From NCBI GenBank assembly GCA_964016885.1, contig OZ024756.1:19778001-19842000 (forward strand): 64,000 nt of DNA, written 5' to 3'. The stretch is from Eledone cirrhosa. Its lineage: Eukaryota. The notes beneath the pieces were generated by a model. The model searched no databases. It was given only the letters and a program-made list of their open reading frames with translations, and was not told the DNA's origin. This document shows, piece by piece, positions 55,092 to 63,900 of this stretch. Within the stretch, counting starts at the first letter, position 1; each line of letters starts with the position of its first letter. A program made the translations under genes and the position numbers.

Positions 55092-56775
55092 TAAGGTGGT
55101 CTGGTCTACGAATTCGGTAAACGCAAGTTTTGTGAAGTCGCAGACGAAAGAGAGAGAGAAAAAAATTCCATACCAGCTCGGTCAAGACTGCGCGAGAAAA
55201 GAATTACACACAGGTCAAACTTGAAGGAGGAGGAGGAAAGAGGAGGAGGAGAGGTAGTGACAGAGAATGAGTGAGTGAAAGTTGAGGAGAGAGTAACAGA
55301 GAGGGAGACTGCTAGAAGTGGTAAAGATACAAGGAACGAAACAGACAGGCAGCATGGAAAAGTAATATGTGTAAATATGATGATAATAATGGAGCTGCGG
55401 CGTTGCAAATGGGATACATATGAAAAAGTGAGTCCTTCATCAGTCACCCTCCAACCGTCCTCGGCATTTCATCGCTTTAAGGGCCATATGCCTCAGGTTG
55501 GTGCGAACAACGGCTAAAAAAAAGTCGTTGGGACAATATATATATATATATATATATATATATATATATATATATATATATATATATATATATATATGTA
55601 TTGTTATACTTTGGGAGGGTCATGTTGCCAATAAGAAACACACGCACCAGTTGTATCTCGGTTTCAACACACGTTTTCAGATAAAGAATCTTGCTAAACA
55701 AATTGAGAAACGATAAATATATAACGACTTAAAGATATATAACGACTTAAAGATATTTACTTATTGTTCCACAATGCTTCAAGCAAACTTCAATACTCTC
55801 TTATATATATATATATATATATATATATATATATATATATATAAGCAAGGGGATATTTAATTTGTTGGTAATTCAACAAATATATATATTTATAACAGAT
55901 TCGAAGCACTCGACAAGTTTTCTGGAGTGTAATATCAATGATATTAATAAATGGAAACTATATTTATAAAACCATATTTATTCTATTTTCTATATTTCAA
56001 GGGTACCAAAACTTTGGTACGCTCTCAGGTAAAACTATCCAGGTAAAATGGAACCGTTACGGTCGCATTCCTGGATATGTCAATATTTATAAAACAAACT
56101 CTGTATTTTATCTGATGAGAGCGTACCAAAGTTTTGCTACCCTTGAAATATATATAATAGAATAAATATGGTTTTATAAATATAGTTTCCCTTTATTAAT
56201 ATCATTGATATCATATATATATATATATATATATGCAAAAGTTCTATTTAAAGTTGTTGGGATACAACAAGTAAATATTTTTATAACTGAAATAAAGCAC
56301 TCGACAAATTTTTGGAGTAGATATACGATATTAATAAATGGAAACTATATTTATAAAACCATATTTATTTAAATTATACATATTTCAGGGATACCACATT
56401 AAATTATGGTATGCCTTCATCAGACAAAATACAATATATAACAGTTTTACAAATAGGTTTGACATACCCTTTTTTTCTTTCTTTTTTATTTCCTCATATT
56501 TTTTATTTCCTCCTATCTTTATCTATCTCTTTCTTTTCTCCATACATTTCTCTCTCTCTCCGATATTTCTCCAGGTTTTCTTTCTCTTTTCTTTCTCTCT
56601 CTCTGTCTTTGTTCTTTTCTCTCTCTCCGTCTTTTTTCTTTCTCTCCGTCTTTTTCTAATTGTGCTTAACACAATGAATTATTATATAAACAAATCACTA
56701 TCCTGACAGCCTCCAAAAGTAATGGTTGTATTTTAAAGGGTACGTCAAACCTATTTGTAAAACTGTTATATATTG

Positions 56776-56840
56776 TATTTTGTCTGATGAAGGCATACCA
56801 TAATTTAATGTGGTATCCCTGAAATATGTATAATGAAATA
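56776..56840 (+). ncRNA. Hammerhead ribozyme fold (inverted partner ~56365-56430)
   Basis: TATTTTGT-CTGATGA-agg.atacca/tggtat.cct-GAAA-TATGTA-TA-ATGAAATA. Confidence 0.65.
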
Positions 56841-57128
56841 AATATGGTTTTATAAATATAGTTTCCATTTATTAATATCGTATATATATATATATATATA
56901 TATATATATATATATATATATATATATATATATATATATATATATATATATATATATATATATATATATATATATATATATATATATATATATATATATA
57001 TATATATATATATATATATTTTTTGTTTTGCAAGGTTTTTGATATGAAATCGTGTGTCGAAACAAAGATTGTTATACTTGGGGAGAGTCATATTGTTGTA
57101 ATAAGATGTTGTAAGCATTTACTTTTGT

Positions 57129-57322
57129 TAGGGCGGTGGATTAGCAATATCGGTAGAGGGTCGGACACTATGCTTTGACACATAGAGTTACGACCCTTCC
57201 CATTCTGAGTTCAAATCCCGCCGAGGTTAACTTTACCTTTCATCCTTACGGGGTCGATAAAATAAAGTACCAGTAATGCACTGGGGGTAATTGCTGGCCT
57301 TGTGCCAAAAGTAGAAACAATA
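57129..57322 (+). mobile_element. SINE A, full-length
   Basis: A/B boxes, central domain and tail as in the other copies. Confidence 0.85.
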
Positions 57323-59837: not shown

Positions 59838-59903
59838 TATTTTATCTGATGAAAACGCACCATAATTTGCCTTGGTGGCCCTTGAAATATGTATAATAAA
59901 ATA
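59838..59903 (+). ncRNA. Hammerhead ribozyme fold (inverted partner ~59560-59625)
   Basis: Near-identical to 46291-46356. Confidence 0.65.
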
Positions 59904-60654
59904 AATATGGTTTTATAAATATAGTTTCCATTTATTAATATATTGTGTATTTACTCCACTAATCTATAGAGTGCTTTATATCAGTTATACACATTTTTAA
60001 GCTTGTTGAATCCCAACAAATTAAATATAACCTCTGCATATGTGTGTATATATATATATATATATATATATATATATATATATATATATATATATATGTA
60101 TATATACACACACATATATATATGTATGTGTGTATATATATATATCAGATAAGAAACAGAGAATCAGTTTTGCGACGAATAAAATTTATTAGACATATTA
60201 CAATCGTTTCTCTGGCGACCAGCTCGAGGCACGATCGATGTAATGATCGAACCTGACTCTGAAATTGCAAGGTCCTCAGATACGTCTCGATTTGTAGAAT
60301 CGAGACGTATCTGAAACGATTCTAATATGTCTAACAAATTTTATTCGTCGCAAAACTGATTCTCCGTTTCTTATGTGATATCATATTCTGCTCTGTAAGA
60401 GCATCGAGTGCTCAAACGGCATACCGCTTACGGACGTTTTAAGTATCCCACACCAACTATATATATATATATATATATATATATATATATATATATATAT
60501 ATATATATATATATATATATATATATATATTTATTAAAATAACAGATTAAAGTTTAAGCAAAGAATCGCTGCTTTCACCCTTAACGGGATCTTCTGATAT
60601 ATATATAGTTATGTAATAAACAACATAAGGCAATTATTCCATTTACCAGTGGTA

Positions 60655-60905
60655 TCTTAAAAGCAAAAAATTTTGCTTTCAATCCCCTTAATAAATAAAG
60701 AATTTGCCATGTCTTTAATTCTAGGTGGATATTTACGGGATTTGATGTCAAAACAATCATTAGTATCAGCACTGAATAGTCCATCGTAAACCATTGCCTT
60801 CCATCTCATTCTTTTAACGACTTGTTCGATTTTATCTATAAGCATTTTGGTATAAGTTGTGTTGGAAGGAGTAGGTATATTTTTGATTGAATAATCCAAT
60901 TCATA
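60655..60905 (-). mobile_element. Penelope-like element ORF N-terminal remnant
   Basis: YSIKNIPTPS...YTKMLIDKIEQVVKRMRWKA resembles PLE N-termini; degenerate downstream; short inverted flanks at 60607-60652 and 60909-60951. Confidence 0.6.
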
Positions 60906-63900
60906 AATTGGTAAATGGAATAATTGCCTTATGTTGTTTATTACATAACTATTAAGCTCTGTTACCTACATAGAGCACTCTTTTTTCCTGGACTTTTCCG
61001 ACGGAATTACTTCATATTATATATATATATATATATATATATATATATATATATATATATATATATATATATATATATATATATATATATATATATATAT
61101 ATATAATATATATATATAAATATATATATATATATATATATAATATACGATATTAAATAAATGGAAACTATATTTATAAAACCATATTTATTTCATTATA
61201 TATATTTCAGGGATATCATATTAACAATATGTTATGCCTTCTTCAGACAAAATACAATATAGACAGTTTTATAGATAAATAGATTTGACATACCGTTCAA
61301 CATCGACTTGTATTTGAAAAAGTTGATTTGGCAGATACAAGTCGATGTTGAACGGTATGTCAAATCTATTTATCTATAAAACTGTCTATATTGTATTTTG
61401 TCTGAAGAAGGCATAACATATTGTTAATATGATATCCCTGAAATATATATAATGAAATAAATATGGTTTTATAAATATAGTTTCCATTTATTTAATATCG
61501 TAAATATACTCCAAATACTTGTTGAGTGCTTTTATATCAGTTATAAATATTTACTAGTTGTAACCCAACAATTTAAATATAACTTTCCATATATATAAAT
61601 ATATATATAAAGAATGAATAATAACAGGTAGACATCATAAAAAGGTAATTTATTCCGTGTGCTTACAAATGTTTCCACGTGGAAACATTTGTAAGCACAC
61701 GGAATAAATTACCTTTTTATGATGTCTACCTGTTATTATTCATTCTTTATATACACTCCGGAATACAGAAGGATCAGGAACTAAGTTTCTTCAACAATTC
61801 TTCCATAACTCGTAGAGTAACCTCTCACCGTACGTCAACCATATCCAGTGTAGTAATTAACCATTACTACATCTTAGGTAATCCTATACCTAATATATAT
61901 TTTTACATTCATATGATTTATTGATTTATTGATATTTTATCTGAGTGACCCGAATCTTCTTGGTCGTAATTTTTCGGCCGCATGGGTGATTTTAGACATA
62001 ATCTTTGTGTGTTGGTATTTTAACGATAGTTATAGCTCTGATTTATCTGAATTATTGAGCCCTCTGCCACTCATGTCGAATTTGTTTATCGTAAACTCGT
62101 GAGCCGATTTTCCGATACTCGATTATTCTACTATATATATATATATATATATATATATATATATATATATATATATATATATATATATATATATATAACG
62201 AAGGAAATGTGGTAAGGAACCAGATGGACCATAACGCACCAAAGTACTCAATACTTAGGGTAGTACAGTGGGTAATAGGAACGAGTAGGACCCCGACGGC
62301 TAAGCTCAAGCCGTTTCGACGGCTAATTCTGGACTAGGCTAATTCTAGTCCAGAATTAGCCGTCGAAAAGGCTTGAGCTCAGCCGTCGGGGTCCTACTCG
62401 TTCCTATATATATATATATACAAAAATATATAAATGTGTATATATATATATACATACATATATATAAATCTCTATATATATACATACATATATATACATA
62501 TATATATATATATATATACATATATATTTTTTTTAACGATCGACTTTCGTCAAATCGGACCGAGGGAACAATGTTTCCGTTGGTCTTTCCAATTGCTAAT
62601 ACTATCTATCGGTCGCAACTCCAGGTAGAAGGAACAACGTGAAATAAAGTGTCTTGCTCAAGGACATAACGCATCGCCTGCTCTAGGAATCGAACTCACA
62701 ATTCCTAGAGCAGGCGATGCGTTATGTCCTTGAGCAAGACACTTTATTTCACGTTATATACATATATATATAAATGTATATATATATATATATATACATA
62801 TATATATGTATATGTGTGTGTATATATATATATATAATGTATTTAAATATTGTATATCACACACACACACACACATATATATATATATATGTATATATAC
62901 ATATACACACACACATATATATAATTACGATAAAAGAAGCCTATTAAAGTGAAATACTAAGTGAGAAGACGTGGTATCTTCTCAGGTTTCTCCAACGGTA
63001 AGACGTCGGGAACAGCTTTGAGGGTTAATTATTATAATTTGTATCAAAGTTCAAAATAATTCGACACCCAGATAGAAAACAAAGGCATACACATATTGGG
63101 ATGTGTACGTGTATGTATATATATATATATGTGTGGCTGAGTGGTTAGAGAATTGGATTCGCAATCGTAAGGTTGTGAGTTCGATTCCTGGACCAGGCGA
63201 TGCGTTATGTCCTTGAGCAAGACACTTTATTTCACGTTGCTCCTTCTACCTGGAGTTGCGACCGATAGATAGTATTAGCAATTGAAAAGACCAACGGAAA
63301 CATTGTTCCCTCGGTCCGATTTGACGAAAGTCGATCGTTCCTTTTATATATATATATATATATATATATATATACATGTATATATATACACACACATACA
63401 TGTATATATATACACATACATATATATATATATATATATATATATATATATATATATATACACATATATATATATATATATAACCAAAAGTTAAACAAGG
63501 TTCAGGATTAATCAATGAATATAGTTTTACAATAGATTAGAAGCACTCAACTGGGAGTTTTCTGGAGTTATTAATATTATTCAAAATATTAATAAATGGA
63601 TACATTCATGTAATCAAAATATATTTTATTATATATATTTCGGAGGTATTGTGCTGTTTTTTCAGTACGTCCTCATCAGATAAAATATATAAATTGATGT
63701 ATGACATACCTCAACTGTGCTGATGGTTCAAATCCAGTCTTGACATATATATATATATATATATATATATATATATATATACATATACATGTATGTGTAT
63801 ATATATATACACATACATGTGTGTGTGTGTGTGTATATATATATATATATATATATATATAACGAAGGAAGTGTGGTAAGGAACCAGATCGACCATAACG

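Follow-up and report, generated by a model that had tools for sequence, protein, structure and literature searches.

Hammerhead-bearing inverted repeats in an octopod genome as probable pseudo-LTR ends of Hydra-clade Penelope-like elements, with a conserved hairpin at their tails

The window analysed here is a 64,000-nucleotide stretch of the Eledone cirrhosa genome (contig OZ024756.1, positions 19,778,001 to 19,842,000); positions refer to the window, and signs before hammerhead cores give the strand. A sequence-only reading had described 55936..61502 as a cluster of hammerhead cassettes arranged as inverted pairs inside (TA)n tracts. This cluster is situated upstream of the first coding exon found, at a distance of more than 19 kb. 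At its left edge, a tailed family A arm on the - strand (55842..56027), 5'-truncated inside the hammerhead core and with tail hairpin 1 at 55906-55928, is followed by a tail-less + arm (56034..56211) that carries a hammerhead at 56104-56164 (core 56112, predicted cut after 56156) and ends in (TA)n. The next - arm of family A (56240..56472) is tailed, with hairpin 1 at 56296-56318 and a damaged hammerhead (core 56423), and abuts a tail-less + arm (56473..56880; hammerhead 56776-56840, core 56784) with the longest 5' extension, which includes a pyrimidine-rich, 3'UTR-like tract. Further along, a tail-less family A - arm (59514..59729; hammerhead 59561-59626, core 59618) is separated by a 5-nt loop from a tailed + arm (59735..60037; hammerhead 59838-59903, core 59846) whose tail of about 91 nt contains hairpin 1 at 59953-59975. 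Another tail-less family A - arm (61139..61316; hammerhead 61189-61254, core 61246, CTGAAGA) is separated by a 15-nt spacer from a tailed + arm (61332..61590; hammerhead 61394-61459, core 61402, hairpin 1 at 61508-61530). Other families lie between these. The family H head-to-head pair (60145..60460, one arm on each strand) had been overlooked; its - arm holds one further type I hammerhead (core 60279) with a 62-nt stem II and a GUA triplet, and its + arm has lost the core and bears a tail in which the hairpin is matched only weakly. A family G end is present on the - strand (60530..60600), and further copies at 9740-9930 and 17140-17300 have a tail bearing the hairpin. The family F pair (60605..61017) has 44-nt identical arms, with hairpin 1 at 60956-60979 in the tail of the + arm and, on the - arm, a fragment of the N-terminus of a Hydra-clade ORF (60705..60908; YSxKNIP and RWK motifs). 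An antisense 122-aa ORF at 56338-56706 was rejected as an AT-rich chance frame.

Elsewhere in the window, a family A2 pair (1564..2283) holds cores -1674 and +1790, with its tail (2202-2283) separated by a SINE-like insertion. Intronic family A copies consist of a tail-less arm with a hammerhead and an incomplete partner, which is the tail alone at 16341..16575 (core -16437) and a tailed arm truncated in stem II at 17334..17661 (core -17430). Solo tailed copies belong to family A (46215..46487, + strand, core 46299, about 96% identical to 59762-60034) and family A2 (63485..63743, - strand, core 63679). Family C contributes a pair joined at core -48704 with a hairpin in the tail of its - arm (48530..48808) and a tail-less - arm with an intact hammerhead (53581..53675, core 53667). 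Family B head-to-head pairs with a one-sided tail, at 62199..62407 and likewise at 10485-10676, are too short for a hammerhead. A family B end also belongs to a 5'-truncated Hydra-clade Penelope-like element (PLE) on the + strand (44285..45590), comprising an inverted tail stub, a CxCx5C linker, a GIY-YIG-type domain (44354-44734), and a 3'UTR. No hammerhead core was found in this PLE, the sole element in the window with an endonuclease domain.

Twenty CTGANGA...GAAA candidates were detected in the window, 13 of which passed a type I hammerhead filter; in 100 block-wise dinucleotide shuffles, passing sites averaged 0.01 with a maximum of 1. At the positions listed by the sequence-only reading, 12 of 13 copies satisfied the type I descriptor (+1790, +46299, +56112, +56784, +59846, and +61402; -1674, -16437, -17430, -59618, -61246, and -63679), and the claimed ATA (AUA) cleavage triplet was borne out. 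The remaining copy (core -56423) failed, having one extra base and a broken stem I. Core -53667, which passes the filter, and core -48704, whose stem I is lost at the junction, had been missed, as had core -60279 of the separate family H within the cluster. Stem II covaries. Across the stems, pairing held in 95.4% of alignment cells and double changes numbered 33 (0/500 shuffles), these figures being inflated by relatedness because the 15 rows of the alignment include near-identical arms. Loop III is palindromic (TATATA, TATGTA, TGTGCA, or TGCGCA), and about 45 nt separate the predicted cut site from the short end of the arm downstream of it. Monomer folds were weak (z -2.05, -0.24, and -0.56), and a hammerhead with a 2-bp stem III and a palindromic loop would probably need to dimerise, or to be assisted by protein, in order to cut, and would do so in tandem master transcripts. 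No Rfam hammerhead model was among the matches listed (150 of 276) or in 5 further rows, and the listed Rfam matches on the window were microsatellite-driven miRNA matches only; eight ORF-linked Hydra loci with clear hammerheads likewise gave no Rfam match at the gathering score. The exact family A hammerhead pattern had no match in metagenome contigs.

The metazoan PLE hammerheads described by Cervera and de la Pena (2014, PMC4209133) share the short stem III, the palindromic loop, the dimer type, and families with covariation, and dual motifs on opposite strands, 100-700 bp apart, were already noted there in Schistosoma. In contrast to those hammerheads, the window copies are without a bulged base between positions 9 and 10.1, have a long stem I with an extension, and have mostly replaced G10.1-C11.1. 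The listed Hydra hammerheads have a GUH triplet and a short stem II. In the window copies, by contrast, the triplet is AUA, stem II is long and interrupted by a C-C mismatch beyond its first 3 bp, A10.1-U11.1 predominates, and the palindromic loop III is A/T-rich.

The paired units consist of (TA)n, a tail-less arm, a junction, a tailed arm, and (TA)n, with both 3' ends facing outward. The pairs are head-to-head; their arms are 95-100% identical, with values of 96-99% for the pairs named by the sequence-only reading, and a single arm of each carries a one-sided tail of 65-91 nt. Because this tail had been overlooked, the limits given by the sequence-only reading were too short and the units reach about 90 nt further on one side. 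Its proposals of (TA)n targeting and of long dsRNA potential were both supported, the copies being inserted into (TA)n. The statement that most copies occur as inverted pairs needs correction: 8 of 15 related cores lie in two-core pairs, and four of the five named pairs hold two cores, whereas 55936-56210 holds one, its left arm being broken inside the core. The letters do allow a ribozyme fold on both strands, but this is a by-product of PLE integration. The antisense arm precedes the ribozyme in any read-through RNA, and the core was predicted to be wholly paired in 8/8 strand folds of the four two-core pairs; folding predicts that the antisense arm silences the ribozyme in each pair.

This predicted sequestration counts against a retrozyme- or viroid-like unit made to cleave on both strands and to yield circular RNA, a reading which we consider very improbable. 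Four pairs do carry one hammerhead per strand, the palindromic loop III is canonical as in metazoan retrozymes (PMC7229834), and non-LTR retrozymes (PMC7229834; bioRxiv 10.64898/2026.07.22.740005) share the type I hammerhead, the ORF-less locus, and the PLE connection. However, retrozymes are head-to-tail tandem units, whereas the window copies are single or head-to-head truncated ends. The label retrozyme-like was not supported, since head-to-tail tandem units are absent from the window and the 5' ends of copies vary widely. Moreover, arm lengths and junctions differ at each site, and the hammerhead-free families B, D, F, and G form the same head-to-head pairs. An origin of the pairs as fold-back artefacts, arising during amplification or assembly, is scarcely credible. 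The window is rich in perfect palindromes, and the junction at 59730 was unbridged (31 letters on each side) among the contig pieces listed, but six families share a fixed one-sided tail that stops 2-7 nt short of a conserved hairpin, which an artefact would not produce. The arms also differ by 0-5%, and the same form occurs at the unrelated locus L057 and in publications.

The Hydra clade comprises PLEs with a C-terminal endonuclease, including Hydra-1_Obim of Octopus bimaculoides (Craig et al. 2021, PMC8557442). It has in common with the window the (TA)n target, a type I hammerhead near the 3' end, an inverted 5'-truncated copy, and a one-sided tail, and, with the window ORF pieces, the RWK and CxCx5C motifs; Penelope-13_HM is listed there with a hammerhead on each strand. 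The window tails, at 65-91 nt, are longer than the 30-40 bp stated for PLEs. The ORF fragment at 60705..60908 showed 47% identity to a full-length Hydra-type ORF, and the family B nuclease domain gave weak fold matches to GIY-YIG nucleases (best E 0.05). Related ORFs were found at 78 loci; RW[KR], DK[TS], and YRDD were present in 34/34 full ORFs and CxCx5-6C in 32/34. Relatives of the nuclease fragment were found by HMMER search, whereas a word-based protein search gave none. No Pfam model matched the window ORF pieces or four long relatives, and no relatives were found in viral contigs. A Naiad PLE, a type without a canonical hammerhead and with its endonuclease at the N-terminus, was rejected, given the hammerheads in the window and the C-terminal position of the nuclease in related ORFs.

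The Hydra-type ORF pieces in the window (RWK in family F, CxCx5C in family B) share the same end architecture as the hammerhead-bearing arms, and at L057 an ORF, a tailed arm, and an inverted tail-less hammerhead arm are all present together. The arms of families A, A2, C, and H reach no ORF within the window, which contains no RT sequence of these families, and they are tied to the clade indirectly, by the tail hairpin motif and the architecture. Thousands of related contigs were found in DNA runs, with loose ends entering (TA)n at the short end. The PLE origin put forward by the sequence-only reading was supported, and the clade can be named as Hydra. The hammerhead repeats are very probably the 5'-truncated 3' ends (pseudo-LTRs, pLTRs) of several Hydra-clade PLE families in this octopod genome. 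As flagged, the hammerhead pairs are ordinary debris of a described clade: published work on it already covers the pair architecture, the hammerhead, and insertion into (TA)n, along with a family from Octopus.

It is unlikely, though conceivable, that families A, A2, and C are instead non-autonomous, ORF-less derivatives moved in trans by a Hydra-clade protein via the same hairpin signals. Besides the missing ORF connection, the window hammerheads are unlike those of ORF-bearing relatives: an AUA triplet occurred in 1/68 hammerhead matches of the relatives, and the stem II region spans 26-41 nt in the window versus 10-29 in the relatives. Family F joins an ORF start directly to a 3' end, so deletion derivatives are present here, and pLTRs are reported to suffice for trans mobilisation (PMC3846280). 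On the other hand, the widely variable 5' ends resemble those of truncated copies, and the longest arm enters a pyrimidine-rich tract resembling the 3'UTR at 44870-44960. Depth across related contigs in DNA runs falls steadily towards the 5' side. The ORF-linked relative L040, moreover, has an AUA triplet and a palindromic stem III.

The tails open with a conserved bulged hairpin of the form RCTC...GAGY-RCT, with a variable stem and a 2-nt bulge. In ORF-bearing Hydra loci it comes after 37 of 45 distinct hammerheads, compared with 32/4197 background windows. In the relatives, the stretch from the hammerhead to the start codon holds twin hairpins, found at 30 places with a spacing of 55-83 nt. 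Inspection by eye shows the same hairpin at the end of the published consensi Hydra-2_Amil and Hydra-2_Ajap, and two of them at the beginning of Hydra-1_Ajap. A model trained on ORF-bearing relatives only (31 ORF-linked hairpins) placed the window tails within its top 18 matches, which ties the ORF-less ends to the Hydra clade. In 10 of 13 window pairs the end falls 2-7 nt short of hairpin 1, and in the relatives 13/20 insertion ends lie -1 to +8 nt from the start of a hairpin (7/20 do not fit). Hairpin 2 was not seen for the window families, whose tails slightly exceed the hairpin spacing of the relatives. The inner pairs covary, and the outer stem is nearly invariant; RNAalifold recovered just 4 invariant outer pairs. 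Rfam gave no match for the hairpins. No description of the twin hairpin was found in the text of the open-access papers searched; the words "hairpin" and "stem-loop" are absent from the supplement text of PMC8557442.

The hairpins could act as DNA, either as sites that the endonuclease recognises when an element re-inserts into its own pLTR or as promoter or translation signals, with the ends thereby placed beside them. The near-invariant outer stem and the position of the hairpins 33-69 nt before the YSxKNI motif are consistent with this, and the D. virilis Penelope endonuclease required tail sequence for plasmid cutting (recounted in PMC11167929). Nevertheless, we regard it as rather improbable: the ends are flanked by simple repeats, (TA)n or others, and not by element DNA, and the 3' bulge fixed at 2 nt (T first) and the G-U pairs (15/177 inner pairs, the first inner pair being required by the script) suit a sense-strand RNA structure.

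Taken as a whole, the reading as Hydra-clade pLTR ends is the best explanation and has high confidence. The element protein would nick both (TA)n strands, and two cDNAs would be primed on uncleaved RNA. One hairpin, probably a protein-binding RNA element, would set each reverse-transcription start, a step to which we give moderate confidence: the tail-less arm would begin before hairpin 1 and the tailed arm before hairpin 2. If each hairpin fixes one start, the tail length would therefore equal the hairpin spacing. Both short cDNAs would then join at their growing ends to give a head-to-head pair. In its fullest form, the proposal, which we favour only slightly, is a clade-wide twin RNA hairpin in the pLTR, each copy docking one protein subunit and fixing one start a few bases upstream, with the tail as the hairpin period and the pair as two simultaneous primings on nicked (TA)n strands. 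The Poseidon element PAc (Frangieh et al. 2024, PMC11167929) likewise has two reverse-transcription starts bounding the tail, cutting and extension of both target strands, an uncleaved RNA template, and an AT-rich target. The PAc starts, however, lie inside the ORF within a single AC-rich stem loop, whereas those proposed here fall within the 5'UTR portion of the pLTR, each directly before its own conserved hairpin copy.

The twin hairpin, although a by-product, outweighs the flagged hammerheads in importance. PMC8557442 calls for an in vitro system for PLEs, and PMC11167929 maps two starts without a conserved signal; a conserved twin hairpin matching both ends bears on internal start choice, the one-sided tail, and the inverted copy, and offers a direct test and a short motif to classify ORF-less repeats. 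If the proposal is true, RNA-templated insertion targeted to (TA)n would have a portable cis-signal in this motif, which would also be diagnostic of ORF-less Hydra remnants. The near-perfect palindromic centres (5-15 nt) may reflect fold-back self-priming rather than two cDNAs. The pairs, some of them intronic, would probably give rise to near-perfect dsRNA of 100-200 bp in this cephalopod.

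A type I hammerhead descriptor returned 20 candidates in the window, of which 13 passed, and 100 shuffles averaged 0.01. Of the 13 hammerhead sites named in the sequence-only reading, 12 satisfied this descriptor, the exception being the damaged copy at 56423 (-). All related copies shared the same order, namely, stem I (8 bp), CUGANGA, stem II, GAAA, a six-base palindrome, UA, and stem I. Stem II began with 3 bp and continued past a C-C or C-U mismatch for at least 5 further bp; as claimed earlier, its sequence varied, with pairs exchanged among A-U, G-C, and G-U. The expected covariation was present in a 15-row alignment (95.4% of cells paired, 33 with both partners changed; 0 of 500 shuffles), and it is weaker than it appears because the 15 rows represent only about six subfamilies. 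Stem III had 2 bp and a palindromic loop, which corresponds to the dimer type of PMC4209133. Monomer folds were weak, and the stem I pairing probability of isolated copies ranged from 0 to 0.84. A further hammerhead family, separate from the related copies, was found at 60279 (-). Other types of minimal hammerhead-like core, each solo and with a short stem II, were seen at 43146 (-), 19064 (-), 47073 (+), and 51649 (-).

Every unit lay within (TA)n, as described previously, with both 3' ends facing outward. Comparison of the arms in 15 regions, which gave no terminal arm pair from 16.3 kb, 44.3 kb, or 53.6 kb, showed 95-100% identity and spacers of 3-262 nt. The tail-less arm ended about 45 nt past the predicted cut, and the partner arm extended 65-91 nt further. 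Arm lengths varied from site to site: the partner arm at 16.5 kb was the tail alone, and a 25-nt stub lay next to a 1.3-kb arm at 44.3 kb. Short families without a hammerhead (B, D, F, and G) made the same pairs. Fold predictions for the four two-core pairs had the antisense arm pairing with the core whichever strand was folded (8/8), with an unpaired probability of at most 0.001. Junctions or ends of 5' truncations lay inside the hammerhead core or no more than about 15 nt from it at 55.9k, 48.7k, 53.7k, and 60.3k and in the fetched loci L063 and L068; other 5' truncation junctions lay 50-300 nt upstream of it.

The pairs had earlier been read as Penelope-like element (PLE)- or retrozyme-like. 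Two open reading frame (ORF) pieces with family B and F ends were present in the window: a CxCx5C linker and nuclease domain at 44354-44734 (+) on a family B end and an ORF N-terminus with YSxKNIP and RWK at 60705-60908 (-) within a family F pair. The CxCx5C and YSxKNIP/RWK motifs are defining for the Hydra clade of PMC8557442, a (TA)n-targeting, hammerhead-bearing group with a family in Octopus bimaculoides. The linker-nuclease piece had 4385 relatives (E up to 0.001), and GIY-YIG nucleases ranked first, with weak matches, against its structure model (pLDDT 94). The CTGANGA core was not found in the 850-nt 3'UTR of this Hydra-type nuclease-bearing element (44285-45590), and family B is possibly a Hydra family lacking the hammerhead, or a variant one. 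Among the 78 relative loci fetched (the best 78 of 501 confirmed stretches), full ORFs contained RW[KR], DK[TS], and YRDD in 34/34 cases and CxCx5-6C in 32/34. The relatives differed from the window in their cleavage triplet, GUH in 67 of 68 hammerhead matches; the L040 hammerhead had AUA and a palindromic stem III, as in the window.

The hammerhead ends themselves were ORF-less, and their link to the clade came through the tail. Tailed arms of families A, A2, B, C, F, and G all opened with RCTC...GAGY followed by (R)CT. In ORF-bearing loci, this hairpin motif occurred 49-75 nt after 37 of 45 distinct hammerheads versus 32 of 4197 background windows. By eye, three of the eight hammerheads without a match ended before the hairpin position, four had variants, and one was probably no hammerhead. 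In 31 aligned hairpins, whose outer four pairs were fixed by the selection of copies, the inner pairs covaried freely (first pair C-G in 18 and U-A in 13; 38 double changes, 0 of 500). In the window, A, A2, B, and C tails had A-U as the outer pair instead of the G-C of the relatives. A covariance model built only from the 31 ORF-linked copies placed window tails as the 18 best of 28 matches (rough E 1.5e-5 to 0.45), and the ORF-less hammerhead ends are therefore tied to the Hydra clade. At 15465-15516 (-) and 62021-62078 (+), further tails carried the motif and terminated in (TA)n; they belong to families not otherwise described in this analysis. Family D (47808-48032, 55595-55720, and 57020-57110) formed a head-to-head pair in (TA)n with a 50-nt one-sided tail that lacked the motif, and is perhaps a PLE of another clade.

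When all 78 loci were searched, two tandem hairpin copies preceded the ORF at 30 places with a spacing of 55-83 nt (several loci share a family), the second hairpin lying 33-69 nt upstream of YSxKNI. Opposite-strand matches to the hairpin model lay close together at L015 315-407, L019 2257-2396, and L033 2512-2683; those of L015 and L033, ahead of the ORF start, represent another arrangement of the twin motif. Relative to the cut, ends at (TA)n were bimodal (19 rows): six lay between +31 and +44, nine between +91 and +111, and the other four at +4 and +72-73. Downstream ends were placed on the upstream pseudo-LTR copy of the same locus, with contig-edge ends excluded. Of the 20 ends placed in this way, 13 were positioned -1 to +8 nt relative to the start of a hairpin, 11 of them identified by script and 2 by eye; some fell at hairpin 1, which opens the tail, and others at hairpin 2 (p 4e-9 to 2e-5, assuming a chance of 0.1-0.2 per end). 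The seven off-hairpin cases included L063 and L068, which end inside the hammerhead, and L061 and L064 (twice), where the alignments probably do not mark termini. Ten of the 13 window pairs had a tail-less arm that stopped 2-7 nt short of hairpin 1; in the other three, the script halted at a point mismatch (two) or the pair was too short (one). L057 presented the complete form: an ORF, a tailed arm, and, in inverted orientation, a tail-less arm that stopped 3 nt short of hairpin 1.

For a Poseidon PLE, PMC11167929 showed cutting and extension of both target strands, reverse transcription from two internal start sites that mark the limits of the tail, and no need for hammerhead cleavage. By this scheme, the element protein would here bind both hairpins and start one cDNA immediately ahead of each; joined head-to-head, these two short cDNAs would give the pair. 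Pair centres with 5-15 nt loops may be shaped by fold-back self-priming (PMC3846280). The flagged hammerhead pairs are a further instance of a kind already known. No description of the twin hairpin or of its match to both ends was found in the literature searched.

In four DNA runs from one study, 7576, 6709, 6929, and 793 contigs matched 59518-60040, which shows a large repeat family, the totals not being a copy number. Depth was highest on the hammerhead 3' half and fell off both toward the centre and within the tail. Loose contig ends at 59941 and 59950 continued into (TA)n. Among the contigs listed for this interval, no variant row fell within the hammerhead core boxes and no piece bridged the pair junction.

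An SLC6 glycine-transporter-like gene occupied 159-36285 (-), with 13 coding segments by tblastn to an Argonauta protein; the best named match of one exon was Argonauta hians (79%). The first coding exon identified was separated by more than 19 kb from the pairs at 55936-61502, which lay upstream of it. An SLC6 intron contained two tandem, near-identical, intact-looking Tx1/L1-type LINEs (21206-32450), possibly site-specific, with an ORF1 of 642 aa and an ORF2 of 1150 aa bearing endonuclease, RT, and zf-RVT, and a third remnant end lay near 37360-37800. Near-perfect palindromes or inverted repeats were also present at 61627-61730, 53668-53800, and 62535-63339, some built from SINE-like sequence (the SINE label, like family labels A-H, was assigned in this analysis).
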